Shown piece after piece: positions 43,845 to 63,067 of a DNA stretch of 64,000 bases. The DNA comes from Escherichia coli (lineage in GTDB: Bacteria; Pseudomonadota; Gammaproteobacteria; Enterobacterales; Enterobacteriaceae). The DNA lies in assembly GCF_003019035.1 (NCBI RefSeq), contig NZ_CP027447.1; one strand, written 5' to 3'. A model generated the notes under the pieces. That model saw only the letters and a program-made list of their open reading frames with translations. It searched no databases and was not told where the DNA came from. A program made the position numbers and the translations under genes. Each line of letters opens with the position of its first letter. Position 1 is the first letter of the stretch.

Positions 43845-44804
43845 TTGTTTCCATTTCGTCGTAACGTTCTTGCATTTGCCGCTCTGTTGGCGCTCTCCTC
43901 CCCCGTAATTGCTGGCAAACTTGCCATCGTCATTGATGATTTTGGGTATCGCCCGCACAACGAAAACCAGGTGCTGGCGATGCCTTCCGCTATCTCCGTC
44001 GCTGTATTACCCGATTCACCGCACGCCAGAGAGATGGCGACCAAAGCGCATAACAGCGGTCACGAAGTGTTGATTCATCTCCCGATGGCACCGTTGAGTA
44101 AACAGCCGCTGGAGAAAAATACGCTGCGCCCGGAGATGAGCAGCGACGAAATTGAGCGCATTATTCGTAGTGCGGTCAATAACGTGCCCTATGCCGTGGG
44201 GATCAATAACCACATGGGCAGCAAGATGACCTCTAACCTGTTTGGTATGCAGAAAGTGATGCAGGCGCTGGAGCGTTACAATCTTTACTTCCTCGACAGC
44301 GTAACCATCGGTAATACCCAGGCGATGCGCGCCGCGCAAGGCACTGGCGTGAAGGTGATCAAACGGAAGGTGTTCCTCGACGATTCGCAGAACGAAGCGG
44401 ACATCCGTGTACAGTTTAATCGCGCAATTGACCTGGCGCGTCGCAACGGATCAACCATTGCCATTGGGCATCCTCACCCTTCAACGGTACGCGTGCTACA
44501 ACAGATGGTTTATAACCTGCCGCCAGACATTACGCTGGTGAAAGCCAGCAGCTTGCTGAATGAACCGCAGGTTGATACGTCTACACCGCCGAAAAACACT
44601 GTGCCCGACGCACCGCGTAATCCGTTCCGTGGCGTGAAGCTCTGCAAACCGAAGAAACCGCTGGAACCTGTTTATGCTAATCGCTTCTTTGAAGTATTAA
44701 GCGAAAGCATCAGCCAGAGCACGCTGATCGTTTACTTCCAGCATCAGTGGCAAGGCTGGGGCAAACAGCCTGAAGCGGCGAAGCTTAACGCTAGCGCAAA
44801 TTAA
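43845..44804 (+). CDS. yibQ: Divergent polysaccharide deacetylase family protein
   Basis: 319-aa ORF with TTG start 4 nt after envC; signal peptide MFPFRRNVLAFAALLALSSPVIAG. Confidence 0.8.
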   Translation: MFPFRRNVLAFAALLALSSPVIAGKLAIVIDDFGYRPHNENQVLAMPSAISVAVLPDSPHAREMATKAHNSGHEVLIHLPMAPLSKQPLEKNTLRPEMSSDEIERIIRSAVNNVPYAVGINNHMGSKMTSNLFGMQKVMQALERYNLYFLDSVTIGNTQAMRAAQGTGVKVIKRKVFLDDSQNEADIRVQFNRAIDLARRNGSTIAIGHPHPSTVRVLQQMVYNLPPDITLVKASSLLNEPQVDTSTPPKNTVPDAPRNPFRGVKLCKPKKPLEPVYANRFFEVLSESISQSTLIVYFQHQWQGWGKQPEAAKLNASAN

Positions 44805-45825
44805 AGGCGCTACGCGTAATGCGATGGTGCGACCGCGTTTTGTCGCGCCATTGCCATAAGCGAAAAGACCACAGTAACGCCTGATAACCCACCTTCACGC
44901 TGCGCACATTGGTAATCAGGCGCTTATACATACCGGAAGTAAATATCTCGGCAATCATCCGTTGGCGGGTAAGAATATCCGGCTCTTTGCGCACCGCATG
45001 GCAAACACGCAATGCTTCGTAAGTTATTTGCTGATGAAATTCCGGATAAATCGTAATTTTGTCAGCATAATTTCGATTTAATTTCTCCAGCAGGCGGGTA
45101 ATCTTAATATAGTGACGTTGATAATTAAGGTTTTTGTTCCCTTGTCTGTTCAACCGACTCACTGACGTATTATGCAGATAATATTTATATAATGATTGCT
45201 CGGTATATCGCGCACGCAGCGCGTTAAACATAAATTCTGTTGTCCAGACAATATCCTGATGATGTAATCCGGCAATAAATTTAATGTTATTTTTAACAAT
45301 AACATCGCGGCGATAAACCCCCATCCAGACCACGTGTGTCCAACGGCGGGAAGAAAGCCCCATCCGCAGCCAGTCCGGACCGGTTAATACACCGGTTGAG
45401 CGAAGGCGATCGGTAGGGATGGATTGCCAGGTTTCACCCGTTTCACGAAAACACCAATCAGCGTTGCACTGCGCCACGTCGAGGTCGTCCTCTAACGCCA
45501 TGGTCATCAGCGTTTCGTACATGGTGGGATACACCTCATCGTCAGCATCGACAAAAGCGACATATTTTCCCGTTGCCACCTCGATCCCACGATTACGCGC
45601 CACCGATGCGCCAGCATTCGCCTGATGCAACAAACGAACGTGCGGATAGTTTTCTGCGTAATGCTTTGCTATTTCAACAGAATTATCCGTTGAACCATCG
45701 TTAATAATAATGATTTCCAGAGCAGTCCATGTTTGCGCAATTAAAGATTCCATACAAGTGCGGAAATCATTGCCCGCATTATATAACGGAATAATAACAC
45801 TAAGTTTATTGGTGCTGTTCATCAT
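44791..45825 (-). CDS. waaH: Family-2 glycosyltransferase (LPS core modification)
   Basis: 344-aa ORF MMNSTNKLSVIIPLYNAGNDFRTCMESLIAQT... with DxD (FVDADD); convergent with yibQ, overlapping its 3' end by 14 nt. Confidence 0.85.
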   Translation of the reverse strand: MMNSTNKLSVIIPLYNAGNDFRTCMESLIAQTWTALEIIIINDGSTDNSVEIAKHYAENYPHVRLLHQANAGASVARNRGIEVATGKYVAFVDADDEVYPTMYETLMTMALEDDLDVAQCNADWCFRETGETWQSIPTDRLRSTGVLTGPDWLRMGLSSRRWTHVVWMGVYRRDVIVKNNIKFIAGLHHQDIVWTTEFMFNALRARYTEQSLYKYYLHNTSVSRLNRQGNKNLNYQRHYIKITRLLEKLNRNYADKITIYPEFHQQITYEALRVCHAVRKEPDILTRQRMIAEIFTSGMYKRLITNVRSVKVGYQALLWSFRLWQWRDKTRSHHRITRSAFNLR

Positions 45826-46031
45826 AAATTACCGACGACCTCTGAAGTTATCCTGACGTTTTACAGGCTTTGTATTAAGAAACTATTAAGCCTGTGAGAT
45901 ATTATTTTTACCGGTGAGAGAGTCACGTCAGGGTAGAGAGATAATGAGAGCAGCTATATAAGAGATCAGCGCAATTACGATATCTTGATTACACTGACAG
46001 GATTTTACATATTTAACGGATTATCCTCAGG

Positions 46032-46054
46032 CAAAAGGGCTGGAATACCAGCCC
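46032..46054 (-). terminator. Rho-independent terminator after tdh
   Basis: GGGCTGG-aatacc-CCAGCCC hairpin 10 nt beyond the tdh stop, followed on the transcribed strand by UUUUG. Confidence 0.55.
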
Positions 46055-46063
46055 TTGTTCGTG

Positions 46064-47089
46064 TTAATCCCAGCTCAGAATAACTTTCCCGGACTGGCCC
46101 GAACGCATAGCGTCAAAGCCCTTCTGGAAATCATCGATAGAGAAACGATGGGTAATGATCGGCGAGAGATCGAGGCCAGACTGAATCAGCGCCGCCATCT
46201 TGTACCAGGTTTCAAACATCTCACGACCGTAAATACCTTTAATGAACAAGCCTTTAAAGATTACTTTGGTCCAGTCGATAGACATATCGGACGGTGGAAT
46301 ACCCAGCATCGCAATACGACCGCCGTGGTTCATGGTGTCGAGCATGGTACGAAACGCTGGCGGCGCACCGGACATTTCCAGACCGACATCAAAGCCTTCG
46401 GTCATGCCCAGTTCTGTCATCACATCATTAAGGTTTTCTTTCGCGACGTTAACCGCACGGGTGATACCCATTTTACGCGCCAGCTCAAGGCGGTATTCGT
46501 TAACATCAGTAATCACCACGTTACGTGCACCAACGTGTTTCGCCACCGCCGCCGCCATAATACCAATCGGGCCTGCACCAGAGACCAGCACATCCTCGCC
46601 CACCAGATCAAACGACAGCGCGGTATGCACGGCGTTACCGAAGGGATCAAAAATGGAAGCCAGATCATCGGAGATATTGTCGGGGATTTTGAAAGCGTTG
46701 AACGCCGGAATCACCAGATACTCGGCGAAGCAGCCCGGACGGTTAACGCCGACGCCGATCGTGTTGCGGCACAGATGGGTACGACCGCCACGACAATTGC
46801 GACAGTGACCGCAGGTGATATGGCCTTCGCCAGAAACGCGATCGCCAATCTTGAAGCCTTTCACTTCCTGACCAATACCTACCACTTCACCGACATATTC
46901 ATGGCCCACGACCATCGGCACCGGGATGGTTTTTTGCGACCACTCATCCCAGTTATAGATGTGAACGTCAGTCCCGCAGATGGCTGTTTTACGGATTTTA
47001 ATCAGCAGATCGTTATGCCCGAGTTCCGGTACAGGAACGTCGGTCATCCAGATGCCCTCTTCCGCTTTCAGTTTGGATAACGCTTTCAT
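46064..47089 (-). CDS. tdh: L-threonine 3-dehydrogenase
   Basis: 341-aa [48 protein letters not shown]...; Zn-ADH signatures. Confidence 0.95.
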
Positions 47090-47098
47090 CTCACATCC

Positions 47099-48295
47099 TC
47101 AGGCGATAACGCCCAGTTGTTTACCAATACGCGTGAATGCTTCTACTGCACGCGTAATTTGCTCAGGGGTATGCGCCGCAGACATCTGGGTACGAATACG
47201 CGCCTGACCTTTCGGAACGACCGGATAGAAGAAACCGGTGACGTAAATGCCCTCTTTTTGCAGCTCACGGGCAAATTTCTGCGCCACTACCGCATCGCCA
47301 AGCATGACCGGAATAATGGCGTGATCGGCTCCCGACAGGGTAAAGCCCGCCGCCGACATTTGCTCACGGAACTGACGCGCGTTCGCCCACAGACGGTCAC
47401 GCAGCTCGCTACCCGCTTCAACCATCTCCAGCACTTTGATGGAAGCGGCAACAATGGCCGGTGCCAGCGAGTTGGAGAACAGGTACGGACGAGAACGCTG
47501 GCGCAGCCACTCAACCACTTCTTTGCGCGCCGCGGTATAACCACCAGAAGCCCCGCCCAATGCTTTACCCAACGTACCGGTAATGATGTCTACACGCCCC
47601 ATCACATCGCAGTATTCATGGGAACCACGACCATTTTCACCGACAAAACCGACCGCGTGGGAGTCGTCTACCATCACCAGGGCATCGTATTTATCTGCCA
47701 GATCGCAAACGCCCTTCAGGTTGGCAATCACGCCGTCCATCGAGAACACACCATCGGTGGCAATCAGCACATGACGCGCACCGGCTTCACGCGCTTCTTT
47801 CAGACGTGCTTCCAGCTCCTGCATATCGTTGTTGGCATAGCGATAGCGTTTAGCTTTACACAGACGCACACCATCAATAATAGACGCGTGGTTCAGTGCG
47901 TCGGAGATAATGGCGTCTTCCGCGCCCAACAGCGTTTCAAACAGGCCACCGTTAGCATCAAAGCAGGAAGAGTAGAGAATCGCATCTTCCATCCCCAGGA
48001 ATGCCGCCAGTTTCTGTTCAAGCTCTTTATGGCTGTCCTGAGTGCCGCAAATAAAACGCACCGAAGCCATGCCGAAACCGTGAGAATCCATTCCCGCCTT
48101 TGCCGCCGCAATCAGATCCGGATGATTCGCCAGCCCGAGATAGTTGTTGGCACAAAAGTTAATGACGTGGCTTCCATCAGCCACAGTGATATCTGCTTGC
48201 TGCGCAGACGTAATAATGCGCTCTTCTTTAAACAACCCTTCCGCCCGTGCGGTTTCCAGATCGTTGGTTAACTGCTGATAAAATTCTCCACGCAT
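47099..48295 (-). CDS. kbl: 2-amino-3-ketobutyrate CoA ligase (glycine C-acetyltransferase)
   Basis: 398-aa [41 protein letters not shown]...; 9 nt upstream of tdh. Confidence 0.95.
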
Positions 48296-48508
48296 TGCGA
48301 TTCTCCAGACAGGGCAAATTCCAGCACATATTACCCAAACTTATAGGTCGCGACGAGATGACGCATTAACACTTCTGCAAAATTCAGGATAAATAACGTC
48401 CATCAATCTCACTTTTGGCGAATGGCTGAAGCCAACGCCGTGTAGTGATATGATAGAAGTATTCGTGTCTGAGATTGTCTCTGACTCCATAATTCGAAGG
48501 TTACAGTT

Positions 48509-49441
48509 ATGATCATCGTTACCGGCGGCGCGGGCTTTATCGGCAGCAACATCGTTAAGGCCCTGAATGATAAAGGCATCACCGATATTCTGGTGGTGGA
48601 CAACCTGAAAGACGGCACCAAGTTTGTGAACCTGGTGGATCTGGATATCGCGGACTATATGGATAAGGAAGACTTCCTGATCCAGATTATGGCTGGCGAA
48701 GAGTTCGGCGATGTCGAAGCGATTTTCCACGAAGGCGCGTGCTCTTCCACCACCGAGTGGGACGGCAAGTATATGATGGATAACAACTATCAATACTCCA
48801 AAGAGCTGCTGCACTACTGCCTGGAGCGCGAAATCCCGTTCCTGTACGCCTCTTCTGCAGCCACTTACGGCGGTCGCACCTCCGACTTTATTGAATCCCG
48901 CGAATATGAAAAACCGTTGAATGTCTACGGTTACTCAAAATTCCTGTTTGATGAATATGTTCGCCAAATCCTGCCGGAAGCCAACTCGCAGATTGTTGGC
49001 TTCCGCTATTTCAACGTTTATGGACCGCGTGAAGGCCATAAAGGCAGCATGGCGAGCGTCGCTTTCCATCTCAACACTCAGCTTAACAACGGTGAATCGC
49101 CGAAGCTGTTCGAAGGTAGCGAGAACTTCAAACGCGACTTCGTTTACGTAGGCGACGTGGCAGATGTAAACCTGTGGTTCCTGGAAAATGGCGTTTCCGG
49201 TATCTTCAACCTCGGTACTGGTCGTGCGGAATCCTTCCAGGCGGTAGCCGATGCAACGCTTGCTTATCACAAGAAAGGCCAGATCGAATACATTCCGTTC
49301 CCGGATAAACTGAAAGGCCGCTATCAGGCGTTCACTCAGGCAGATCTGACAAATCTGCGCGCGGCGGGTTACGACAAACCGTTCAAAACCGTTGCTGAAG
49401 GTGTAACGGAATACATGGCCTGGCTGAATCGCGACGCATAA
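48509..49441 (+). CDS. hldD: ADP-L-glycero-D-manno-heptose 6-epimerase
   Basis: 310-aa [36 protein letters not shown]...; Rossmann GxGxxG. Confidence 0.95.
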
Positions 49442-49450
49442 GAGCTCTGC

Positions 49451-50497
49451 ATGAAAATACTGGTGATCGGCCCGTCTTGGGTTGGCGACATGATGATGTC
49501 GCAAAGTCTCTATCGCACGCTCCAGGCGCGCTATCCCCAGGCGATAATCGACGTGATGGCACCGGCATGGTGCCGTCCATTATTATCGCGGATGCCGGAA
49601 GTTAACGAAGCGATCCCTATGCCTCTCGGTCACGGAGCGCTGGAAATCGGCGAACGCCGCAAACTGGGTCATAGTCTGCGTGAAAAGCGCTACGACCGCG
49701 CCTACGTCTTACCTAACTCCTTCAAATCCGCATTAGTGCCTTTCTTCGCAGGTATTCCTCATCGCACCGGCTGGCGCGGCGAGATGCGCTACGGTTTACT
49801 CAACGATGTACGCGTGCTCGATAAAGAAGCCTGGCCGCTAATGGTGGAACGCTATGTCGCGCTGGCCTATGACAAAGGCATTATGCGTACAGCACAAGAT
49901 CTGCCGCAGCCATTGTTATGGCCGCAGTTGCAGGTGAGCGAAGGTGAAAAATCATATACCTGTAATCAGTTTTCGCTCTCATCAGAACGTCCGATGATTG
50001 GCTTTTGCCCCGGAGCGGAGTTTGGTCCGGCAAAACGCTGGCCACACTACCACTATGCGGAGCTGGCAAAGCAGCTGATTGATGAAGGTTATCAGGTGGT
50101 TCTGTTTGGCTCGGCGAAAGATCATGAAGCGGGCAATGAGATTCTTGCCGCTTTGAATACCGAGCAGCAGGCATGGTGTCGGAATCTGGCGGGAGAAACA
50201 CAGCTCGATCAAGCGGTTATCCTGATTGCAGCCTGTAAGGCCATTGTCACTAACGATTCTGGTCTGATGCACGTTGCGGCGGCGCTCAATCGTCCGCTGG
50301 TTGCCTTGTATGGTCCGAGTAGCCCGGACTTCACACCGCCGCTATCCCATAAAGCACGCGTGATCCGCCTGATTACCGGCTATCACAAAGTGCGTAAAGG
50401 TGACGCAGCGGAGGGTTATCACCAGAGCTTAATCGACATTACTCCCCAGCGCGTACTGGAAGAACTCAACGCGCTATTGTTACAAGAGGAAGCCTGA
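49451..50497 (+). CDS. waaF: LPS heptosyltransferase II
   Basis: 348-aa ORF MKILVIGPSWVGDMMMSQSLYRTLQARYPQAIIDVMAP... Confidence 0.93.
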   Translation: MKILVIGPSWVGDMMMSQSLYRTLQARYPQAIIDVMAPAWCRPLLSRMPEVNEAIPMPLGHGALEIGERRKLGHSLREKRYDRAYVLPNSFKSALVPFFAGIPHRTGWRGEMRYGLLNDVRVLDKEAWPLMVERYVALAYDKGIMRTAQDLPQPLLWPQLQVSEGEKSYTCNQFSLSSERPMIGFCPGAEFGPAKRWPHYHYAELAKQLIDEGYQVVLFGSAKDHEAGNEILAALNTEQQAWCRNLAGETQLDQAVILIAACKAIVTNDSGLMHVAAALNRPLVALYGPSSPDFTPPLSHKARVIRLITGYHKVRKGDAAEGYHQSLIDITPQRVLEELNALLLQEEA

Positions 50498-50500
50498 CGG

Positions 50501-51460
50501 ATGCGGGTTCTGATCGTTAAAACATCGTCGATGGGCGATGTTCTCCACACGCTGCCCGCACTCACTGATGCCCAGCAGGCAATCCCAGGGATTAAGTTTG
50601 ACTGGGTGGTGGAAGAAGGGTTCGCACAGATTCCTTCCTGGCACGCCGCCGTTGAGCGAGTTATTCCTGTGGCAATACGTCGCTGGCGTAAAGCCTGGTT
50701 CTCGGCCCCCATAAAAGCTGAACGCAAAGCGTTTCGTGAAGCGCTACAAGTAGAGAACTATGACGCAGTTATCGATGCTCAGGGGCTGGTAAAAAGCGCG
50801 GCGCTGGTGACGCGTCTGGCGCATGGCGTAAAGCATGGAATGGACTGGCAAACCGCTCGCGAACCACTGGCAAGCTTGTTTTACAATCGTAAGCATCATA
50901 TTGCAAAACAGCAGCACGCCGTAGAACGCACCCGCGAACTGTTTGCCAAAAGTCTGGGCTATAGCAAACCACAAACCCAGGGCGATTATGCTATCGCACA
51001 GCATTTCCTGACGAACCTGCCTACAGATGCTGGCGAATATGCCGTATTTCTTCATGCAACAACCCGAGATGATAAACACTGGCCGGAAGAACACTGGCGA
51101 GAATTGATTGGTTTACTGGCTGATTCAGGAATACGGATTAAACTTCCGTGGGGCGCGCCGCATGAGGAAGAACGGGCGAAACGACTGGCGGAAGGATTTG
51201 CTTATGTTGAAGTATTGCCGAAGATGAGTCTGGAAGGCGTTGCCCGCGTACTGGCTGGGGCTAAATTTGTAGTGTCGGTGGATACGGGGTTAAGCCATTT
51301 AACGGCTGCACTGGATAGACCCAATATCACGGTTTATGGACCTACCGATCCGGGACTAATTGGTGGGTATGGGAAGAATCAGATGGTTTGTAGGGCTCCG
51401 GGGAAAAGTTTAAATAATCTCAACGGTCAAGCAGTTTTGGAAAAGTTATCATCATTATAA
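50501..51460 (+). CDS. waaC: LPS heptosyltransferase I
   Basis: 319-aa ORF MRVLIVKTSSMGDVLHTLPALTDAQQAIPGIKFDWVVEEGF... Confidence 0.93.
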   Translation: MRVLIVKTSSMGDVLHTLPALTDAQQAIPGIKFDWVVEEGFAQIPSWHAAVERVIPVAIRRWRKAWFSAPIKAERKAFREALQVENYDAVIDAQGLVKSAALVTRLAHGVKHGMDWQTAREPLASLFYNRKHHIAKQQHAVERTRELFAKSLGYSKPQTQGDYAIAQHFLTNLPTDAGEYAVFLHATTRDDKHWPEEHWRELIGLLADSGIRIKLPWGAPHEEERAKRLAEGFAYVEVLPKMSLEGVARVLAGAKFVVSVDTGLSHLTAALDRPNITVYGPTDPGLIGGYGKNQMVCRAPGKSLNNLNGQAVLEKLSSL

Positions 51461-51469
51461 AGGTAAAAC

Positions 51470-52735
51470 ATGCCAACCTTCATTAAACTTCATTCATGGA
51501 AACCTTACACTCTGAAATCATCTATGATTTTAGAGATAATAACTTATATATTATGTTTTTTTTCATTAATAATTGCATTCGTCGATAACACATTCAGCAT
51601 AAAGATGTATAACATCACTGCTATAACTTGCTTATTGGCGCTAATTTTACGTGGCAGACAAAAAAATTACAATATAAAAAATCTTATTCTGCCCCTTTCT
51701 ATAATTATTATAGGCTTGCTTGATTTAATTTGGTATTCTATATTTAAAGTAGATAACTCGCCATTTCGTGCTACTTACCATAGTTATTTAAATACTGCCA
51801 AAATATTTATATTTGGTTCTTTTATTGTTTTTTTAGCACTAACTAGTCAGCTAAAATATAAAAAAGAGAGTGTATTATACATTTTATATTCTCTGTCATT
51901 TATAATTGCTGGATATGCAATGTATATTAATAGCATTCATGAATATGACCGTATTTTTTTTGGTGTAGGAACGGCAACAGGAGCGGCATATTCAACAATG
52001 CTAATAGGGATAGTTAGTGGTGTTGCGATTCTTTATACTAAGAAAAACCATCCTTTTTTATTTTTATTAAATAGTTGCGCGGTACTTTATATTCTGGCGC
52101 TGACACAAACCAGAGCAACACTACTCCTGTTTCCTGTAATTTGTGCTGTTACATTAATAGCTTATTATAATAAATCACCTAAGAAATATACTTCCGCTAT
52201 TGTTCTTCTAATTGCTATATTGGCTAGTATTGTAATTATATTTAATAAACCAATACAGAATCGCTATAATGAAGCATTAAATGATTTAAACAGTTATACC
52301 AATGCTAATAGCGTGACTTCCTTAGGTGCAAGGCTGGCAATGTACGAAATTGGTTTGGATATATTCAAAAAGTCACCTTTTTCATTTAGATCTGCAGAGT
52401 CGCGCGCTGAAAGTATGAATTTGTTAGTTGCAGAACACAACAGGCTAAGAGGGGCATTGGAGTTTTCTAACGTACACCTACATAATGAGATAATTGAAGC
52501 AGCGTCACTAAAAGGTCTGATGGGGATTTTTTCCACCATTTTCCTCTATTTTTCACTATTTTATACAGCATATAAAAAACGCGCATTGGGTTTGTTGATA
52601 TTAACGCTTGGCATAGTGGGGATTGGACTCAGTGATGTAATCATATGGGCACGCAGCATTCCAATTATCGTTATATCCGCTATAGTCCTCTTGCTTGTTA
52701 TTAATAACCGCAACAATACTATTAATCAAGAATAG
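51470..52735 (+). CDS. waaL: O-antigen ligase
   Basis: 421-aa polytopic membrane protein, very AT-rich; position after waaC; sequence resembles the K-12-type WaaL as I recall it. Confidence 0.85.
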   Translation: MPTFIKLHSWKPYTLKSSMILEIITYILCFFSLIIAFVDNTFSIKMYNITAITCLLALILRGRQKNYNIKNLILPLSIIIIGLLDLIWYSIFKVDNSPFRATYHSYLNTAKIFIFGSFIVFLALTSQLKYKKESVLYILYSLSFIIAGYAMYINSIHEYDRIFFGVGTATGAAYSTMLIGIVSGVAILYTKKNHPFLFLLNSCAVLYILALTQTRATLLLFPVICAVTLIAYYNKSPKKYTSAIVLLIAILASIVIIFNKPIQNRYNEALNDLNSYTNANSVTSLGARLAMYEIGLDIFKKSPFSFRSAESRAESMNLLVAEHNRLRGALEFSNVHLHNEIIEAASLKGLMGIFSTIFLYFSLFYTAYKKRALGLLILTLGIVGIGLSDVIIWARSIPIIVISAIVLLLVINNRNNTINQE

Positions 52736-52760
52736 ACAAGTTTAAGAAGTGAGTTTTAAC

Positions 52761-53834
52761 TCACTTCTTATCTATACAAATTAATCTCTTTACTGAATCA
52801 GTTAAAATTTCAGTATCGATATCTTTTATCGTAAATGTTGGAGATACTATTTGTATAGATTGATGATTATTCGGGGCCCAAATTAAATGTGAGGGATATT
52901 CTGGTGTACGTGAATTAGGATAAAATGCAAGAGTTGGTTTATGATAAGCAGTAGCGATATGAACAAGAGCAGTATCAACAGAAATGACAAAATCACTATA
53001 CTTAGTCAACGCAACAGTATAAATAAACTCGTCAAATGGTAGTGTTTCAATTTCAGGTATTGGTATTGTCAATAAATCTTGCGGTAACCCAGTAAATATC
53101 ACTCGATAATTCTCAAACTGGACTTTCACTTCTTGATATATAACTTTTATTTGCTCAAACGTAAGTCGGCATATTTTTTTTGCACCTAATGGATTAATGA
53201 TGACTATCCTTGTATTTCCAATAAAATCTATTATTTTATTTTCAACATCTACAGGCAAATGCAAGTCGTAGTCGGTGGAAAATTCACCCTCACCATAAAT
53301 ATGCTTCAGTATTTCTATTGCTCGTGTACTCATATGTTCTTTTAAACATTCATCATGGGGATGGTAAAATGAATAGTAACGCTTATACCATTGATCAAAA
53401 CCCAGAATGTAAGAATATTTTAAACTTGATAATATTAAACTATGCTTAAATGAGGGCATAGTTTCAAAGGGGTCTAATACAATATCGAACTGTAAATCCC
53501 GCAGATGCTTACATAGAGTAAGCATTTTAAGGGAACCTGTTGATTCTTTAATACAGAATCCAAATATATTTTTATTGTTAGAGAGAAACTCCCCACCCTT
53601 TCTATTTGTGAGAATAGTTATTTTAACTCCTTTACTGTAAAGCTCACGATAAATCGAACTTAATACAATTAAATCACCGAGTTTATTATTATCATGAATG
53701 ATAAGGCATGATTTAACTTGTGCGAGATCTGTAACTTGGTTATTGATTTTTTTACGAAATAAAAAAGAAAGAAAATTAATCTTGATTTTGTTTATATAAA
53801 ATCTTTTCTTTTTGTGAAAAGTTCCTAAACGCAT
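52761..53834 (-). CDS. waaU: LPS core heptosyltransferase IV (GT9 family)
   Basis: 357-aa ORF with heptosyltransferase-like C-terminal region (…ISVDTALVHIATA…); last gene of the waaQ operon in the K-12-type arrangement. Confidence 0.75.
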   Translation of the reverse strand: MRLGTFHKKKRFYINKIKINFLSFLFRKKINNQVTDLAQVKSCLIIHDNNKLGDLIVLSSIYRELYSKGVKITILTNRKGGEFLSNNKNIFGFCIKESTGSLKMLTLCKHLRDLQFDIVLDPFETMPSFKHSLILSSLKYSYILGFDQWYKRYYSFYHPHDECLKEHMSTRAIEILKHIYGEGEFSTDYDLHLPVDVENKIIDFIGNTRIVIINPLGAKKICRLTFEQIKVIYQEVKVQFENYRVIFTGLPQDLLTIPIPEIETLPFDEFIYTVALTKYSDFVISVDTALVHIATAYHKPTLAFYPNSRTPEYPSHLIWAPNNHQSIQIVSPTFTIKDIDTEILTDSVKRLICIDKK

Positions 53835-53866
53835 TTTTATACCATAATATTTTAGTTACAGGATGA

Positions 53867-54724
53867 TTAATTAGCATAAGAATCAGTTGAAGCTTTATAT
53901 TCCATTTTTTTCCTTATCTTATCCTGTGACTTTGACTCTTCTGAACTGATATCGAGAGGCTTAATAAATGGAATTACATCGTAAGAAATAGCCGTATCAT
54001 CTGACAAATTATAAATATTAATATCTTCTACATTATCACGCATAAAACGGAAAAATGGTAAGATTTTAAACAAATCCCTACTCAATTCCGAGGGCATAGG
54101 ATTGTTACTTTCGTCATAGAAACGAGTACAACTACCAGTTAAATCAAGACCAGAACAAATAATCCGCGCATACTTCAGCGAATAGGCTATTTGGATTGCA
54201 GCAAAGGCAACGGTATGGCATGAACAATAACCGAGATTAATATCCTTGCAAAAGCCAACCAGACGACCTTTTTTAGAAAAAGGTACAGAAATCAGGAGCT
54301 CTTTATGAATTCGGCTCAAAATATTAAACTTAATCTTCTTAATCAATCCACCTTTTTCTCTGCGGTAAAATGAACGTAGTACCAGGCAGTTTTGAAGGAT
54401 GTACCGTTTATCTTCTTCAGAAGCATGTTCATAAACATCAACATTTACGATGGTATAACGACTTCTCTGGCTAAATTTATAAAAATCATCACGTCGTTGA
54501 TGTAAAAAGCGAACATCAGTAAGTACATAAATATACGGAATAATATTATGACTTAATAGATATTGCGCAGAACCATTGACAGCAATAACATCCCTTGTCT
54601 GCAGCACTGACAATGGTGTTTTTTGCGATGTGGGGCCGGAAAGAAAAATAATAACATCATCAGACGTTTTACTTTCTATCAGGTTCTCAACATCTTTTTT
54701 GCCAATGTATCTAATATTCTTCAT
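53867..54724 (-). CDS. waaZ: LPS core biosynthesis protein WaaZ
   Basis: 285-aa ORF MKNIRYIGKKDVENLIESKTSDDVIIFLSG...; position between waaY and waaU. Confidence 0.8.
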   Translation of the reverse strand: MKNIRYIGKKDVENLIESKTSDDVIIFLSGPTSQKTPLSVLQTRDVIAVNGSAQYLLSHNIIPYIYVLTDVRFLHQRRDDFYKFSQRSRYTIVNVDVYEHASEEDKRYILQNCLVLRSFYRREKGGLIKKIKFNILSRIHKELLISVPFSKKGRLVGFCKDINLGYCSCHTVAFAAIQIAYSLKYARIICSGLDLTGSCTRFYDESNNPMPSELSRDLFKILPFFRFMRDNVEDINIYNLSDDTAISYDVIPFIKPLDISSEESKSQDKIRKKMEYKASTDSYAN

Positions 54725-54795
54725 GATAAACCTGTGAAATAAGAACTCCGCATAGAAATGTCCTGATGAAGACGTTTAAACGTAAGACGTTTACA

Positions 54796-55494
54796 TTATC
54801 GTGCTGGCTTCCCTTTCAAACGCCGCATAAGATTACGTATTTTTTTACGATAAACTAAAATATAATAACCGAGATCTTTAATCTCATTCTTAATACCATA
54901 ATGTCGCTCTAAATCAATACGATCTTTCGCTTTACGTTGTGCAGATGCCCGTTTTCCTGAAAGATCAATAATACGTACTTCACCATTTTCAATAATAAAA
55001 TTACCGCGGTGAGGATCACCAGATACCATACCATGTTTGTGCAATGAACGGATTGATTGTTGAATTTTATTTTTTAACGTTTCATCAATGTCGGGGATAT
55101 CACACAACTCTACGCCATCGATATATTCGATAAGCATGATATAAGTATGGACAAAACGTAATGTTTTCCGTTCTGCCAATAAATAAAAATCATTGAGTGT
55201 ATTTAACCCTTCATTTCTTACTTTTTGGGTTTGCTCAAAAAGGCGTTCGTAATAATCACCTTTTAACAGAGACTTAAAGAAACGTTCGTTACGCTTAACT
55301 TTCGGAGAAAAAACCTTAAGAATCAATTTGCCGTAATCGGTATCAATAAGCATAACTTTTGTATCATCAATAGAACGAAAAACCTTGATGATATTTATAT
55401 TATAAGACAAGAAGTCATTTAATACATTGAGATACTTTGAATTGTTTTCATCGGTAAAAACAACCAAGTCTTTGATCTTGCTCTTCTGAATCAT
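54796..55494 (-). CDS. waaY: LPS core heptose(II) kinase
   Basis: 232-aa ORF with kinase-like motifs (HGMVSGDPHRGNFI). Confidence 0.85.
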   Translation of the reverse strand: MIQKSKIKDLVVFTDENNSKYLNVLNDFLSYNINIIKVFRSIDDTKVMLIDTDYGKLILKVFSPKVKRNERFFKSLLKGDYYERLFEQTQKVRNEGLNTLNDFYLLAERKTLRFVHTYIMLIEYIDGVELCDIPDIDETLKNKIQQSIRSLHKHGMVSGDPHRGNFIIENGEVRIIDLSGKRASAQRKAKDRIDLERHYGIKNEIKDLGYYILVYRKKIRNLMRRLKGKPAR

Positions 55495-55511
55495 AATAAA
55501 CCAGTTAAGTG

Positions 55512-56528
55512 TTATTTACGGTAATACTTTCGGCAAAGATAACAGACTCCTGCTATAATTCCTGAGATATAGTTATGCTGCACTAAAAGGTGTTTATATC
55601 TTTTTTTAAATTCAATAATTGATTTTGCATCTCGTGGAGAGTCATCTTTCCATGGTGAATTTTCTAAAGCTATTTTATAGTATTTTACCGATGGATAAAT
55701 TGCCCATTTGTGCCACGGTTTAGTTGCACCTGTATAATGAATAAGCAGAGTACTTTCTGTAATCAGTTTTTTATAGTTTTGATGTGTTTTGTCTTTTAAT
55801 TCACTTTTAATTGTATAAATTGTATTGTACTCACGAGGCAAAAATATTGTCATCCCTTTCAGTAAGACATTCATAACATCCTGATCAGGGTATTTATAAA
55901 CATTATCTTTACTCATAAGAATAGACAACGCTTTTTCGGTTAGTTTTGCGTTAGCCCATTTTTTTAAATCTAAATAAACGACACCGGAATTAAAGTACTG
56001 CCCAAGTAATTCAGGATCAGACAACCTGGATGCCGCCTTTTCCTGCATTGGGTCAACATCTTTAACAACAGCAGCAACCGCTCCGTTTAAATCCAGATAC
56101 AATAGTTGGCTAATATCGCCTTTACAAACAACATCTGCATCAAGATAAAGCAAACGATCAAGCGTTAAACCCAATAATTGAAATGCAAATAAACGGAAGT
56201 ACATTGCTCTTGACCAGACTTGTGTACAAGGCAAGCACTGAAGATTATCAGTATTTATTCTATAAAGTGTGATTCTTAATTGGTATTGCTCAGCAAGTTT
56301 TGCGACTTTTTGAAAGAAATCGTCGCTATAAACATCAGCAATAATATAAAAATCAAGATTAACATGTCGATTATTGATGACAATTGAAGTAATGGATACA
56401 CCTACAGCATCAAGATAATTTGCATCGACACCATAGGCAACATTTAAACTTTCAGCAGTATTTTCATCAATAAGCCTAAAATCCCAAGCTTTAACTTTAT
56501 CTATCTCTATGGCAGGAAATGAGTCCAC
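55512..56528 (-). CDS. waaJ: LPS outer-core alpha-1,2-glucosyltransferase (GT8)
   Basis: 338-aa ORF with GT8 features (DADVV DxD-type motif, YFNSGV); paralogous to the adjacent waaO; also called waaR in K-12-type clusters. Confidence 0.8.
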   Translation of the reverse strand: MDSFPAIEIDKVKAWDFRLIDENTAESLNVAYGVDANYLDAVGVSITSIVINNRHVNLDFYIIADVYSDDFFQKVAKLAEQYQLRITLYRINTDNLQCLPCTQVWSRAMYFRLFAFQLLGLTLDRLLYLDADVVCKGDISQLLYLDLNGAVAAVVKDVDPMQEKAASRLSDPELLGQYFNSGVVYLDLKKWANAKLTEKALSILMSKDNVYKYPDQDVMNVLLKGMTIFLPREYNTIYTIKSELKDKTHQNYKKLITESTLLIHYTGATKPWHKWAIYPSVKYYKIALENSPWKDDSPRDAKSIIEFKKRYKHLLVQHNYISGIIAGVCYLCRKYYRK

Positions 56529-56567
56529 AAGGCTACCCTTATATCATTACTTTATAGTTTCCCAGTT

Positions 56568-57587
56568 TTAATTCTTTATCTTTTCAATAAAATAAAAAAG
56601 ATAGTTGCTAAATCCTTTTAGATATCTATGCTTTTTAAGCATATGTTTTGCGCTATATCTTAATTGATTGCTATTATTCGGTTTCAGCAACGCCGTACTC
56701 TTCCATGGCGAAGCATTTTTTGCCTCCACAAAGGCTTGTGATACAGGATAATCCCAAGCCCAATCATGCCAGGGCTTGGTTGGACCGATATAGTGGATAA
56801 AAATAGTATCGTTGGTTACTGGGTTTGTAAAACTTTCTTTGAGTTGATAGTTTAAGCTAAACTGGGTGTTATATTTAATATCAGCAAAAATAAGTCTGTC
56901 TGCCAGCAACATATTTAATACATCCTGATCAGGATGTGTTATTTTTTTGACTATTTCCGGATCATTTAGCATTGCAATGGCTCGTGCAGAAACCTGCTGA
57001 GCCGCCCATTGGTCAGTATTAATCAATAAAAAACCGGAGTTAAAGTAACCTTTAGCAATTCCCGCAACACCTAACGAATGTGCGCGTTTTTCCCACCAGT
57101 CAGCTTGCCCTTCTGTAACAACCATTGCGACTTTATCGTCAGGAAATGAGAATTTAATTAGGGGCTCAATAGTCCCCTGACAAATGATATCTGCATCCAG
57201 ATAAAGGACTTTAGCCGCCTTATTAATAAAGTAATCTGCAATAACAAAACGAAAATATATTGCATGAGTCCAGTTCTTTGTGCTAGGCAATGAGCGCAGT
57301 CGATCACCATTAATCAGATATATTTTAATTCTGGTTTTATACTGCAACGCCAGTGCATCAAAATATTTACGATCATCATCACCAAAATAATCAGTAAAAA
57401 TATGGAAACACAATCGACTTCCTTCATTATACTTTAATATTGAAGCAATCGAAATTCCGCAACCAAATAGAAAATTTTTGTCAGTTCCATAAGCGATGTC
57501 CAGACAAAGATTTTCTGTTTCTACTTTATGATTATAATCAATAACTGAATTAAGAAACTCAGTCTCCTGGAAAAACACCTGCTGCAT
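56568..57587 (-). CDS. waaO: LPS outer-core alpha-1,3-glucosyltransferase (GT8)
   Basis: 339-aa ORF with GT8 motifs (LDADIICQG, YFNSGFLLIN); formerly rfaI. Confidence 0.85.
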   Translation of the reverse strand: MQQVFFQETEFLNSVIDYNHKVETENLCLDIAYGTDKNFLFGCGISIASILKYNEGSRLCFHIFTDYFGDDDRKYFDALALQYKTRIKIYLINGDRLRSLPSTKNWTHAIYFRFVIADYFINKAAKVLYLDADIICQGTIEPLIKFSFPDDKVAMVVTEGQADWWEKRAHSLGVAGIAKGYFNSGFLLINTDQWAAQQVSARAIAMLNDPEIVKKITHPDQDVLNMLLADRLIFADIKYNTQFSLNYQLKESFTNPVTNDTIFIHYIGPTKPWHDWAWDYPVSQAFVEAKNASPWKSTALLKPNNSNQLRYSAKHMLKKHRYLKGFSNYLFYFIEKIKN

Positions 57588-58666
57588 TATTTCCTCCGGG
57601 AAATAGCAGAAATAATTATCTTATGTAATCTATCGTAATACTTCGATTTATAAAACTTATCGATCGACTCAGGAATTTTTTCATGTTCGATATGAATTTC
57701 ACCTGCTATATATTTATTGAGAAGAGTTACAAAACCAGCAATATCTCCCGGTTGATACAGATGACCATTAACATCAGGTTGAATAATGTCAGCAGGCCCG
57801 GAGACACAATCGGCGCTGATGCAAGGAATTCCCCATGACAAGGCTTCAAGTAGGGTCATTGGGAAACCTTCAAAAGATGACGTGAGCAATAACGCACTCA
57901 CTTTTTTAATATCTTGCTGGACCAATTCCCAGGGATGTTGTTGCCAACCATACCAGACAACTCGATCATCAATATTTAATTCTCTACCATAAGCCTGGCA
58001 TTTTTCGAAATCGGAGCCATCTCCCAATACATGAAGTTTCCAGTCACCTTGCACTTGTGATAAGCCATCAAGGAGGTCTTTAACCCGCTTCTGGCCCTCG
58101 AATTTCATACGCCCAACATAAATGAACGTTGCCGTTTCGCCTTCCTCAGGCCCAGGAATAACTGTGTCTTTAGCTTCGACTGGATTAAAAATAACATTTA
58201 TCGTCGATTCTGGTACACCCCGATTAATCATTTGCTGTTTAATGCCAGAGCTGATGGCTAAATGATAATCGGCACAGGTGATATATTCATCATGTTTTTT
58301 GTGATCTAAAGAAAAATGCGGCCATGAAAATACAGGTACATCAATTCCCGATTTTTTACGAGCTTTGGCCGCATACAAACACGAGATCACGTCAATACAA
58401 ATAACAACATCTGGCTGATAATCCTGAAGCCATTTGCTTAAAGCATGAATATGTTTCGCCCGACGCAAACAACCTAAGCGAATATTGGAAAATGAACACG
58501 AGTACTTAATACCGTCCAGCCATCCCTTATCCATTTTGTCATTACGACAAAAGAAAAACATTTCACTATGGATATGTTGTTGCCTGAAGGTAGTAATAAC
58601 ATCACGAATGACTGTTTCCATGCCGCCAAATCCAGAAACAGCTTCGCCGATAAATGCTATTTTCAT
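57587..58666 (-). CDS. waaB: LPS core alpha-1,6-galactosyltransferase (GT4)
   Basis: 359-aa product from ATG 58666 (MKIAFIGEAVSGFGGMETVIRDVITTFRQ...); ORF-track start 58696 adds 10 codons. Confidence 0.88.
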   Translation of the reverse strand: MKIAFIGEAVSGFGGMETVIRDVITTFRQQHIHSEMFFFCRNDKMDKGWLDGIKYSCSFSNIRLGCLRRAKHIHALSKWLQDYQPDVVICIDVISCLYAAKARKKSGIDVPVFSWPHFSLDHKKHDEYITCADYHLAISSGIKQQMINRGVPESTINVIFNPVEAKDTVIPGPEEGETATFIYVGRMKFEGQKRVKDLLDGLSQVQGDWKLHVLGDGSDFEKCQAYGRELNIDDRVVWYGWQQHPWELVQQDIKKVSALLLTSSFEGFPMTLLEALSWGIPCISADCVSGPADIIQPDVNGHLYQPGDIAGFVTLLNKYIAGEIHIEHEKIPESIDKFYKSKYYDRLHKIIISAISRRK

Positions 58667-58709
58667 TGAAACTCTCATTAATTGAGTAAAACTCACTGTT
58701 TTAATGGTT

Positions 58710-59645
58710 TTATTTTTCTATAAAATCAGAAACAATTGTTGACATCATTTTATCAGGGCTGAATTTATATAAACTATCATAATCCATTGGTTTAACAGAT
58801 GAATTAATAAAATACTCTAACTTATCCCAATCATCATGCCCCATTATAAAAAAGCGAGATTCACTATAGATTTCTGAACCAAGGATATTTATATTATTAG
58901 TAATTAATTTTTTATTGAAAAATAGTGCCTCAAGTATACGAAGAGTCCAGCCAGATTGGTTTTCTTTAGTTATATCAATAATTATATTAGCATTTAATGT
59001 TCTGTTAATATTCTCTTCATAAGGTAATTGCTTTTCAATCAAATACTTTGAAGTCGGAGATGATGTCTTATCTTTGACAACATTAAAATCTAGCTTACAT
59101 CCTAGTGCTGTTAATCTATCGGCTAATTCATTAATTATTTGAAGACGTCCTTTATCACGACCAAGAAAAAAACATATTGGCTGACTGTTATTTTTGTCAG
59201 ATAAACTATAATTTATAACTTCATCCATTCCTATAGGAAAAAATTGTTTTATTGCCTTGGTCTTTTCATTCCCTATAAATCTATGCTCAAAATCATAGAT
59301 AATATCAAAATAATTAGAGTTATCAAAAATAAAATCTTCGCTGACAGTATTCCTTAGAAGTAATACTTTACGACAATTAATATTTCTTAATATTTGCTTG
59401 TTAATACCTTTATTAATGACACTGTCATTAAAGATAATTATATCATCCTTTTTTACAGCATTTAGGTGATGTTTGATAAATAATCGCCCCAACCATGCAT
59501 TATCCATCCCTAATTTCGAAATTTTCTTATTAACCCAGTTGTATTTGTTTGGTGTTGTTATATTTTTTATCTTGTACTTTTTTTTCAGGTACTGGATCAT
59601 CTTTAATTCATAATCTGCAACCCAGTTTATAAAATAAATAGTCAT
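58710..59645 (-). CDS. waaS: LPS core biosynthesis protein WaaS
   Basis: 311-aa [35 protein letters not shown]...; very AT-rich. Confidence 0.8.
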
Positions 59646-59681
59646 AATGAAGTTAATTCCAGTACATACTGATAAATATTT

Positions 59682-60479
59682 TTATAATCCTTTGCGTTGT
59701 GTTCGCTCTTTAATATGCTCGGCCTTAACACTTGCCATGTTCAATAAATTCCGTTCAAGAGATAATATCTTACGTAAAGGTATCCCAAAATAAACCTTCA
59801 TAAATCGCCAGATATCTCTCTGTGTTAGACCAATATTCATTGATGAGAAATATAAACCAATCAAATCTTTATCCCGCCAACGACGTGGTACTTTTGCCCG
59901 TATCTGCGCGCGATGCAGGTCTATTACCGAAATTTTTAACCCATCTTCCCGGCCAGTAAATGGCAAATGGAGCAAAAAGTGGCAAATATAACAGTCGCGG
60001 TGATTTATCCCTGCGGCGTGCATTTTGTGCACCATGGTTGCCACACGCGCGATCAGCATACGCTTAATATGTACATCAGGCGGGTTGACCGCCCAATCTG
60101 CACAATAATCTTCAAGGCTAATCGTGGGAGTGAGATCTTCGGTAATAATAAATGATGTGCGAGTTAATGGATTTAACCCTTTTTCACCAAACCCTATTCC
60201 GTGCATCGTATCAACACCGACATCATGCAGTCGATGAATAGCGTGCCACTCTCTGTCTGCGCCTAAAACGGGCATCCGCAATGAGAGCAGGTTTTTTATA
60301 ATTTCTTTTAAAGTCGTCCCTTTGTGCCACTTGAGGAAATAGCTTTTCCCGGCCAGTTCAAAGCGTAATGTGCGACGCGTCTCGAGTTCACGAAAGACCT
60401 CGCCATTCAGTTTTTTAACTTCTGCAAAGGCATCTTTACCACGCCAGAGTGTGGCAAGTGGCTCTTTTAATTCAACCAT
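59682..60479 (-). CDS. waaP: LPS core heptose(I) kinase
   Basis: 265-aa [40 protein letters not shown]...; kinase catalytic region [11 protein letters not shown]. Confidence 0.93.
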
Positions 60480-61596
60480 CTAAACCACCTGTAATGATAT
60501 CTGCCGCTTTCTCCGGCAAGCTATACAAATCCTGAGTATCGGCGTAATACCGAGCATTCTCCGCCCAAGCCATGCGCAATGGAGATTGAGTTAACGCTTT
60601 ACGTAAAACGTCATTTAATTGTTCCTGGGAGAAAGGTTCAGCGATGACCGTTCCACAATTAGCATCCGCAATATAATGCGCGTACCCACATACCGCTGTT
60701 GTTAAAACAGGTAATCCAGCAGTGATCGCTTCAAGAAGAACGATACCCGCGGCTTCCTGATAAGCGGGATGCAGTAATAAATCAGCGGCTGCCATTAATT
60801 CTGACACATCATTGCGACCGGAGAAGAAATGCACATTGCTCCGCACGCCGAGTTTTTCTGCCAGCGCTTCAAACTTTCGCGGTTTATCCTGCCCAACAAC
60901 AAATAACAGCGTATTGTGACGTAATGATTCCGGTAACGATGCCAAAGCTTCAATTGAGCGATCCACACCCTTACGGCCAAAATCTGATCCAACCTGCAGT
61001 AATAAGTTTTGTTGTTCAGTGATGCCATTTTTCTGGCGATAAATTTCACGACTGTTTGGGATTTGCGCGCTGTATTTTCTGTCCGGGTAGATACCAGGAG
61101 GAAGAATTTGAAAACGTTCTGGTTCAGTTTGGTAATGCTTCTGGAAATCGGCGATTTGCTTATCCGTCAGCATCATGAGTTTCGTCGGTTTACCATGCTC
61201 GAAAGTCGCTCGCTCAAATGCAGCATAATGGCGATAGCGTGATGTTAAACGATAGAACAAGCCCTTTTCTTGCGCCACTTTCTCGGCATAACAGACATCA
61301 GCGGCAAAATAAACATCCAGCCCTGGCATCTTATTAAAGCCAACAACCCGATCAGCGGGATGTGCCTTCAGATGGTTTTGAACCCAGGCATAATATTCTG
61401 CATTACGTCCATGGTTAGTATGGGATTTAACCGGTACGCGAATAAGCTCAAATGCATCCGGGCAATCGCCTTCCCACGACTGTGTATATACCCGAACATG
61501 GTGGCCCCGTGTGGCAACTGTTGAGGCTATACGCATAAAGTCACGCTGTAGCCCACCAAATGGAAAATATTTATATAAGCAAAACGCCACGATCAT
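60472..61596 (-). CDS. waaG: LPS core alpha-1,3-glucosyltransferase I (GT4)
   Basis: 374-aa [44 protein letters not shown]...; overlaps waaP by 8 nt. Confidence 0.95.
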
Positions 61597-62627
61597 AATT
61601 GTGCATTCCTGTCAGCTGAAGGGGCATCTTCTGGCAACAGCTTTTCCGTAGCGGCAATGACATCTTCCGCTGGAATAACAGAAAGATATTTTTTGTTGCG
61701 GTCAAGTTCGTGCCGGGTAGGCATTTTTTGATAATTCCCCGCCCAGAACTGAATAATATTCTCGGTCCATGGACGCCAGAATACATGATCAGTAGCCCCA
61801 AACAGGCTAATAACTGGCGTCTTCACCGCCGCCGCAATATGCCCCGGCGCAGAATCCACACCAATAAAGAGCACGGCATGATCAATTAATGCGCCCAGTT
61901 CAGGAAAACGTGTTTTACCGGCAAGGCCGGTAATAGGTTTTATTTGGCAGCCTCGTGCAATTTCATCTACGCAAGCGAGATCATCTGCCGAAGGGCCACA
62001 AGTCAGCACAACCTGATAACCACGATGTTGCAACGCATCGATAACCATAGAAAATTTATCGTTGTCCCAGCACTTAAATAGCTGTCGGGCTGTCGGCTGG
62101 ATAACGACATAATGATCTTTCACGCCCAGTGCATCTAATTCCTGGCGCATTTTCTTCCAGCAATCATCAGCATAACTCATTGTTGTTTCAGTATAAAAAT
62201 CGGTAATACCTAATGGCTCAAGGACCGACAAATTACGCTCAACAATATGTGTACCGTGTATAGGCGCTAAGTGTGTAAAGCTTTTTTTCCAAATGCCATG
62301 CTGCCGATGACCATAAAGCTGCGATATTTTCATCCGTGCAGGTAAACAACGTACCAGCAGGGCCACCATCCACTGATCCGTAAGATTAATGACTAGGTCG
62401 TAATCATTCGCACGCAGAGTTTTTATCAGTGAAAGTGCATTTTTAATTTTATCGAATGTTCCCGCACCTTTATTGCTTATACCATAGAGTGCATTAATTT
62501 CTGGGTTTTCAGATAAAATCGGAATTGTATCCTGGTAAAGCAGCATATCGATTTTAGCGTCGGGATAATTCTGCTTGAGTGTACTGATTACAGGAGTAGT
62601 TAATAACATATCTCCGTGATATCGCAT
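61593..62627 (-). CDS. waaQ: LPS heptosyltransferase III
   Basis: 344-aa product from ATG 62627 (MRYHGDMLLTTPVISTLKQNYPDAKIDMLLYQD...); ORF-track start 62663 is a GTG 12 codons upstream; true start not resolved. Confidence 0.88.
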   Translation of the reverse strand: MRYHGDMLLTTPVISTLKQNYPDAKIDMLLYQDTIPILSENPEINALYGISNKGAGTFDKIKNALSLIKTLRANDYDLVINLTDQWMVALLVRCLPARMKISQLYGHRQHGIWKKSFTHLAPIHGTHIVERNLSVLEPLGITDFYTETTMSYADDCWKKMRQELDALGVKDHYVVIQPTARQLFKCWDNDKFSMVIDALQHRGYQVVLTCGPSADDLACVDEIARGCQIKPITGLAGKTRFPELGALIDHAVLFIGVDSAPGHIAAAVKTPVISLFGATDHVFWRPWTENIIQFWAGNYQKMPTRHELDRNKKYLSVIPAEDVIAATEKLLPEDAPSADRNAQL

Positions 62628-62710
62628 CTTTATGACCAGGATTTTTCGAAATGGCTTTTCCACTAGCGACTCTTTTGTGTGATTGTCTGGTTAAGTTAAG
62701 CAGAAAAAAG

Positions 62711-62722
62711 CACGCTACCGCC
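62711..62722 (-). promoter_or_regulatory. ops element (RfaH recruitment site) within the JUMPStart sequence in the waaQ 5' leader
   Basis: Plus strand reads CACGCTACCGCC, i.e. GGCGGTAGCGTG on the transcribed (minus) strand; lies 85-95 nt upstream of the waaQ start. Confidence 0.85.
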
Positions 62723-63067
62723 CCAGGCTCAACAGCTACCCGAATACTGATAACGCACTTACTTTGACGCGCTAGTGTATCATTTCTTTCGCAGCAATCC
62801 GACCCGAATGATTTTTATACACAAAATATGATTTAATTATAAAAATCATATAGATAAAATTTTGTATACAGAGAATCCAGATATTGTCTATGTAAAGTTG
62901 CAATCCTGGCTGAAATTCAATGAATCGCATAAAAATACAAAAAAATGAAGATCTAGCAGCAGATCAGCTCAAACAGAGACTATTTAAGTCAAAAACGGGA
63001 AAAGTAATGGTAAAGCCACAGCTAAATACATAGAATCCCCAGCACATCCATAAGTCAGCTATTTACT

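Follow-up and report, generated by a model that had tools for sequence, protein, structure and literature searches.

The compact kbl-hldD junction of an htrL-less Escherichia coli strain is very probably ancestral and carries a predicted hldD promoter followed by a conserved leader hairpin

In Escherichia coli K-12 the gene htrL (yibB) is located between kbl and rfaD (hldD), at the border of the waa cluster. In other Enterobacterales, including Salmonella LT2, kbl and hldD are adjacent and divergent. The K-12 spacer between kbl and rfaD has a length of 1,435 bp (genes b3617-b3619), and the HtrL protein encoded in it has 285 aa and matches the family PF09612 with 436 bits. The variability of htrL is already known, and the gene was listed among the differentially present genes of the waa region when UTI isolates were compared (PMC8303582). 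Several observations on the regulation of the heptose genes have also been published. Transcription of gmhD/htrM-waaFC rises at high temperature (PMC8745692, citing Raina & Georgopoulos 1991), a constitutive hldD promoter with the sequence TTAATA-17-CATAAA was proposed from genomic SELEX (PMC3946193), and the AT-rich spacer between htrL and hldD of K-12 was listed as H-NS-bound, again by genomic SELEX (PMC3946193).

The DNA analyzed here, called the window in the following, is a stretch of 64,000 nucleotides from E. coli (contig NZ_CP027447.1). The RefSeq strain SCU-301 (NZ_CP051751.1) is 99.9% identical to it over the 11 kb that were compared. In the window kbl and hldD are also divergent, and according to the ORF coordinates the spacer between them (48296-48508) comprises exactly 213 bp. 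The features of the junction are summarized in Table 1. On the kbl side, the blocks TATTACCCAAA, ACGAGAT, and CAGNATAAATNACG were conserved in an alignment of 17 Enterobacteriaceae sequences. A preliminary description of the sequence had noted the distance of 213 bp and the apparent lack of htrL, had named the gene order of K-12, and had proposed a tBLASTN search with HtrL and a synteny comparison, both of which were performed. tBLASTN with K-12 HtrL against all 64 kb revealed no remnant of the gene, and the best match (E = 0.62) comprised 27 aa inside kbl. A blastn search of the whole window with the DNA that carries htrL in K-12 yielded only chance matches (E of at least 0.83). In addition, the only ORF of the spacer region had no Pfam match, compared to the 436 bits of K-12 YibB with the HtrL_YibB family (PF09612/TIGR02192). 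Because no remnant was present and the K-12 order kbl-htrL/yibB-rfaD had been given correctly, the observation stands. The absence of htrL is real, but it is ordinary, and the htrL-less form is the norm.

Table 1. Coordinates of the features at the kbl-hldD junction (positions in the window, unless the K-12 locus L001 is indicated)
Feature	Position	Strand	Characteristics and basis
kbl (glycine C-acetyltransferase)	47099-48295	minus	398 aa; ORF list and kbl annotation in the near-identical SCU-301
kbl start codon	48293-48295		CAT on the plus strand
kbl-proximal half of the spacer, control side of kbl-tdh	48296-48399	minus	99% identity with K-12 as far as the breakpoint at 48399
Antisense "shadow" ORF	48341-48814	minus	157 aa, GTG start; ORF list; not considered a gene
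Variable hinge of the spacer	48400-48420		Least conserved columns of the multi-genus alignment; site of the htrL cassette in K-12
Predicted hldD core promoter	48424-48454	plus	-35-like GGCTGAAG (48424-48431); 17-nt spacer; TG (48446-48447); -10 TATGAT (48449-48454)
Leader stem-loop GUC.GAGA-UUG-UCUC.GAC	48467-48485	plus	Starts 13 nt after TATGAT; minimum-free-energy fold and RNAalifold consensus
hldD Shine-Dalgarno GAAGG	48496-48500	plus	AAGG nearly invariant in the alignment; 8 nt before ATG
hldD/rfaD	48509-49441	plus	ATG 48509-48511; ORF list and RefSeq annotation of SCU-301 and CFT073
Hairpin 3' of htrL in K-12	L001 3696-3727		14-bp arms; probably the htrL terminator

The alignment with the K-12 locus (L001) defined the two breakpoints precisely. 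The left flank, window positions 48196-48399, corresponded to L001 3397-3600 with 202 identities in 204 positions, and the right flank, 48461-48608, corresponded to L001 4884-5031 with 147 identities in 148 positions, i.e., both flanks were 99% identical. Between the flanks the window contains 61 bp (48400-48460), versus 1,283 bp in K-12 (L001 3601-4883). This K-12 segment, termed the cassette in the following, has a GC content of 36%, versus 51-54% for kbl and rfaD. It forms a self-contained unit with the probable terminator, htrL, the AT-rich promoter region of this gene, and a copy of the hldD core promoter that has diverged. Neither terminal inverted repeats nor a target-site duplication were found at L001 3601 and 4883. 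The ends thus show no signature of a transposon or an IS element, and internally only the terminator hairpin and chance-level matches were present. One block on the kbl side, GATAAATAACG, has a perfect inverted copy of 11 nt within the cassette, 158 bp from its right end (L001 3589-3599 and 4715-4725), which may be due to chance (BLAST E = 0.28). The leader of htrL in K-12 was also inspected for the RfaH ops element, and none was found there. The only exact ops in the window, GGCGGTAGCGTG, is located at 62711-62722 on the minus strand upstream of waaQ (61593-62663), and it represents the JUMPStart/ops site that the waaQ operon is expected to have.

The synteny comparison of the kbl-hldD region included 5,426 complete E. 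coli genomes. The contiguous htrL-less junction was present in 3,465 of them (64%), among them CFT073 and a BL21(DE3) derivative, and the cassette was present in 1,959, including K-12, O157:H7, and O104:H4. The two forms together accounted for 5,424 of the genomes. The preliminary description had been right in proposing that strains differ at this border of the LPS core genes. The junction was also followed beyond E. coli with HldD as a query and one genome per species, which returned 80 loci of Enterobacterales and related bacteria. In about 60 of the 80 loci kbl is the divergent upstream neighbor of hldD, and in nearly all of these cases the gap is 212-260 bp. The gap has a length of 213 bp in E. 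albertii, 214 bp in Citrobacter, 215 bp in Enterobacter, 240 bp in Serratia, 244-258 bp in Yersinia, and 232-233 bp in Photorhabdus, and about 50 Enterobacterales species in addition to the first five of these taxa fall into the range of 212-260 bp. A spacer of exactly 213 bp is present not only in E. albertii, but also in CFT073, AR435, and SCPM-O-B-8794. The E. albertii spacer could be aligned to that of the window without a gap and with 14 mismatches in the 213 positions, and the CFT073 spacer showed 8 differences. The spacer of the window could also be aligned to those of Citrobacter and Enterobacter, and it is orthologous over its full length and contains no scar. A special case is E. coli AR435, the junction of which (L086 497-709, corresponding to window 48296-48508) is 93% identical. 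Its spacer differs at 33 of the 213 positions, mostly on the kbl side, and, thus, more than that of E. albertii, which suggests that it is an imported allele. The identity band of 90-95%, to which this junction belongs, comprises 482 genomes.

As the outgroups and the majority of E. coli share the 213-bp type, the window very probably carries the ancestral compact kbl/hldD region, from which nothing has been deleted, and K-12 has gained a cassette of 1,283 bp, most likely via recombination. The word "absent", which the preliminary description had used for htrL, is therefore correct as far as the absence itself is concerned, but the loss that it implied did not hold, since the 213-bp form is ancestral as well as the majority form. 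The polymorphism is a routine one of an accessory gene, K-12 is the atypical strain, and differences from K-12 should not be read as losses.

The outer-core gene set of the window is of the K-12 type, and all of its genes are intact. This includes rfaJ, rfaY, and waaZ (window 53867-56528; 338, 232, and 285 aa), for which RefSeq marks frameshifts in SCU-301. Frameshifts of these three genes in the window were rejected, because intact ORFs were seen. Over 11 kb, only 3 mismatches and 6 gaps separate the window from SCU-301, and the frameshifts in SCU-301 are thus probably indel errors of the assembly. The idea that htrL goes together with the K-12 core type was rejected by the counts. Among the 1,032 genomes with a K-12-type waaL, htrL was present in 451 and lacking in about 581, and the resulting share of 44% is inflated by laboratory derivatives of K-12. 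Among the roughly 4,392 genomes with other core types, about 1,508 had htrL and about 2,884 did not (34% with htrL). Carriage of htrL is thus nearly independent of the core type, and the gene is not a marker for it. In sampled rows, the identity of hldD-waaFC to K-12 was about 99.1% for htrL-positive genomes versus 96-99% for htrL-less genomes, which suggests that the cassette travels together with a haplotype block; one gain and a subsequent spread of this haplotype would be predicted. The divergence between the window and K-12 over 44800-64000 was patchy. The arm from hldD to waaA was 93.8% identical and the arm on the kbl side 96.8%, and 15-20 mismatches per 200 bp were found in tdh (46400-46800).

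The origin of the cassette was approached via its copy of the hldD promoter. A segment of 40 bp of the K-12 copy had an identity of 0.80 to Pseudocitrobacter, Kluyvera, and Pseudescherichia, and of 0.61-0.63 to Escherichia. The respective segment of the window had identities of 0.93-0.97 to Escherichia and 0.85-0.88 to Citrobacter, and it follows the species tree. This points to a foreign origin of the promoter copy in K-12, with a signal that comes from only about 40 bp. HtrL orthologues with 76-81% identity are encoded in the same slot and in the same orientation in "Enterobacter sp. Ag1", Citrobacter amalonaticus, and Atlantibacter hermannii. The hldD leader that adjoins the cassette in Ag1 is nearly identical to that of Escherichia and does not resemble the leaders of two relatives of Ag1, Cedecea neteri and Enterobacter sp. 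R1. The affinity of the promoter copy, the orthologues in the same slot, the Ag1 leader, and the lack of transposon ends together argue for recombinational transfer, and homologous recombination via the conserved flanks would most likely have been the route by which the cassette arrived and was disseminated. More distant HtrL_YibB homologues (53-61% identity) are encoded outside of the waa region in Citrobacter freundii (L090 3501-4358) and Salmonella enterica (L092 3501-4355). The C. freundii homologue adjoins dinI and Peptidase_S24-like genes, indicating that the HtrL family is mobile beyond the kbl/hldD slot.

Several other explanations of the short junction and of the patchy occurrence of htrL were weighed against this gain by K-12. 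A missing gene could be an artefact of sequencing or assembly, e.g., a collapsed region. The identical 213-bp junction is, however, common to 3,465 complete genomes, BL21 derivatives and CFT073 among them, and it recurs in outgroup species, so that the absence of htrL is not an assembly artefact and the probability of this explanation is practically nil. A secondary loss, i.e., that the lineage of the strain once had htrL and lost it by a deletion or by replacement with an htrL-less allele, would fit to the K-12 outer-core gene set of the strain (rfaS, waaB, waaO, rfaJ, rfaY, waaZ, waaU, and the K-12-type waaL), because htrL accompanies this type of waaL in 44% of the genomes. However, the combination of a K-12-type waaL with an htrL-less junction is common, as the about 581 genomes mentioned above show, and the waa region of the window, with its 93.8% identity, does not characterize the strain as a recent relative of K-12. 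Furthermore, the site has no scar, and its 61 bp are orthologous to those of E. albertii and Citrobacter, which excludes a simple deletion. An allelic replacement, if it happened, would still have left the ancestral allele. A secondary loss is therefore improbable.

A further alternative concerns the antisense ORF at the junction, which might be a real gene that stands in for htrL. It has 157 open codons and is located on the same strand as htrL. However, it has no match in Pfam, and PGAP/RefSeq does not annotate it in the near-identical SCU-301. It also lies opposite the 5' end of hldD, which is highly conserved, and crosses the predicted hldD promoter and the leader. ORFs of this kind are likewise found on the antisense strand at the start of hldD in Citrobacter and Plesiomonas loci, and their presence in unrelated genera is explained as a by-product of the hldD frame, the antisense frame of which is poor in stop codons. 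A gene at this position is thus extremely improbable, and the ORF is very likely spurious, as had been presumed from the sequence at the outset. Lastly, the patchy presence of htrL in a single slot across genera could also stem from an old insertion that was followed by many losses. For the junction studied here, an ancestral spacer and a gain of the cassette in K-12 remain the preferred reading.

The protein encoded by the cassette was characterized by structure prediction. The AlphaFold model of HtrL had a pLDDT of 91 and a pTM of 0.90, and its best matches in the PDB were GT-A enzymes, namely GT6 blood-group transferases and a fungal galactofuranosyltransferase, with E values of about 2e-5 and TM-scores of only 0.41-0.45. 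A search of the PDB with the HtrL sequence yielded no match. Of the residues considered for an acidic metal-binding motif, invariance was seen for D231, D232, and Q234, and near-invariance for D233. The source databases designate relatives of HtrL as "WlaTC/HtrL family glycosyltransferase". Taken together, HtrL is probably an accessory sugar transferase with a putative GT-A fold. Two further genes were found between kbl and hldD in other genera. In Citrobacter youngae CCUG 30791 (L073 2552-3703) it is a gene for a GT4 glycosyltransferase of 383 aa, which scored 383 bits versus the equivalog of WaaB, the LPS 1,6-galactosyltransferase (cutoff 385). In a Plesiomonas MAG (L072 3227-3919) it is a gene for a TetR-family regulator of 230 aa, which is located in a gap of 1,013 bp. 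In several genera, the spacer between kbl and hldD is a slot in which single LPS-related genes have repeatedly landed.

The hldD-proximal part of the spacer was analyzed for regulatory elements. A simple promoter and terminator scan of 48100-48700 reported nothing at its stringency, and the hldD promoter was detected only via phylogenetic footprinting. All 17 aligned Enterobacteriaceae spacers share, without any change, the heptamer TATGATA (48449-48455), which is preceded by TGn and thus forms an extended -10 box, and most of them also have GGCTGAAG. Related TGnTAT(G/T)AT boxes were found upstream of hldD in Erwinia, Pantoea, Serratia, Yersinia, Dickeya, and Rahnella. The cassette form of K-12 has also kept GGCTGAAG and TGnTATGAT, in register and with the spacing of 17 nt, within a segment that is about 40% diverged. 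This conservation points to a core promoter function of the element, and hldD-waaFCL would be driven by this conserved extended -10 promoter.

The preliminary description had also proposed that the short spacer shortens the heat-shock control region of hldD. Consensus scans, which covered sigma-32, sigma-E, and sigma-70, revealed no good sigma-32 site in the spacer of the window. Its best match to the sigma-32 consensus CTTGAAA-N(11-16)-CCCCATNT had 9 of 14 positions, and the K-12 cassette contains two candidates with 10 of 14 positions (L001 4780-4806 and 4812-4841). The proposed constitutive promoter TTAATA-17-CATAAA was localized inside the K-12 cassette, at L001 4643-4671, and K-12-type strains may, thus, have extra upstream hldD promoters that are missing here. 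The claim of a shortened control region was only half correct. The AT-rich, H-NS-bound 255 bp upstream of hldD in K-12 are missing, but the conserved core promoter, the leader hairpin, and the Shine-Dalgarno sequence have all been kept. Judged by its conserved elements, the predicted hldD control module has lost no part in either of the two E. coli haplotypes.

The hairpin in the hldD leader was analyzed by comparative approaches. Its stems vary between genera with the pairing being kept, e.g., CTGAGA/TCTCAG, CCGGGA/TCCCGG, and CCTGGA/TCCAGG, and the hairpins of Erwinia, Dickeya, Serratia, and Rahnella have quite different GC-rich stems. The structure, but not the sequence, is conserved across Enterobacteriaceae and Erwiniaceae, and Serratia, Yersinia, Dickeya, Pectobacterium, and Rahnella likewise have a hairpin at this place. 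In Escherichia and Citrobacter the hairpin contains a U-U mismatch, and most genera have a stronger one. In a MAFFT alignment of 30 sequences, 87.5% of the hairpin cells were paired, versus 27-56% in slid controls, and changes on both sides were found in five of the six pairs (26 cells). A covariance model was built from this alignment and was searched over 772 kb from 84 sources. It yielded 46 matches, one per locus and always immediately 5' of hldD, including Erwiniaceae that had been absent from model building. In the alignment of the 46 sequences, which was fitted to the model, 85.8% of the hairpin cells were paired, versus 32-57% in slid controls, and both sides had changed in seven of the eight pairs (57 cells). 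The fold of the single E. coli leader was not exceptional (z = -0.07), and, thus, it is covariation and not folding energy that supports the hairpin.

No family of Rfam 15 corresponded to the hairpin. The two matches obtained were chance matches (E = 0.11 and 7.7), and neither overlapped it. This hairpin, together with the promoter in front of it, is the one mildly new item at the junction. A function as a terminator or attenuator was rejected, because no U-run follows the hairpin, and a function as a classical RNA thermometer was rejected, because the Shine-Dalgarno site is uncovered. From these two properties we infer that the hairpin is a 5'-proximal stabilizing or factor-binding element, and the hldD transcript would begin with it.

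These elements may form a common unit. It is conceivable, although somewhat doubtful at present, that the hldD side of the spacer is an undescribed control module of Enterobacterales, which sets the expression of hldD-waaFCL and thereby of the heptose and inner-core genes, and that the haplotypes regulate it differently. Such a module would consist of the invariant extended -10 box followed by the structurally selected stem-loop, and it would act, e.g., via stabilization of the mRNA at its 5' end or via the binding of a further factor. If this is true, the htrL cassette replaces the promoter by a foreign copy and brings H-NS-bound DNA along, and the two E. coli haplotypes would regulate inner-core synthesis differently. 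The conserved promoter and the covarying hairpin offer a testable handle on the expression of the heptose operon.

The junction of the window can be compared to several known arrangements. It resembles that of K-12 in its 99% identical flanks, the gene orientation, the hldD leader, the Shine-Dalgarno sequence, and the -35 and -10 elements with their spacing of 17 nt. It differs in that K-12 has the 1,283-bp segment with 36% GC where the window has 61 bp, so that the spacers are 1,435 and 213 bp long, respectively. In the other Enterobacterales (E. albertii, Citrobacter, Enterobacter, Kluyvera, Serratia, Yersinia, Pectobacterium, and Photorhabdus) kbl and hldD are likewise adjacent and divergent at a distance of 212-260 bp, an extended -10 box, a leader hairpin, and a Shine-Dalgarno sequence are present as well, and the differences are confined to sequence drift. 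The slots of C. youngae and Plesiomonas each hold a single gene on the kbl strand, and again the hldD promoter and leader have been kept. In contrast to the window, the slot of which has no cargo, these two carry a GT4 and a TetR gene, respectively, that are unrelated to HtrL. Stem-loops close to the 5' end of an mRNA, e.g., in the ompA leader, stabilize transcripts. The ompA-type stem-loops resemble the hldD hairpin in being short, in being located a few nucleotides from the 5' end, which is a predicted one for hldD, and in that the structure is conserved over the sequence. The hldD hairpin may work like an ompA-type stem-loop, and the likeness extends to the mode of action only.
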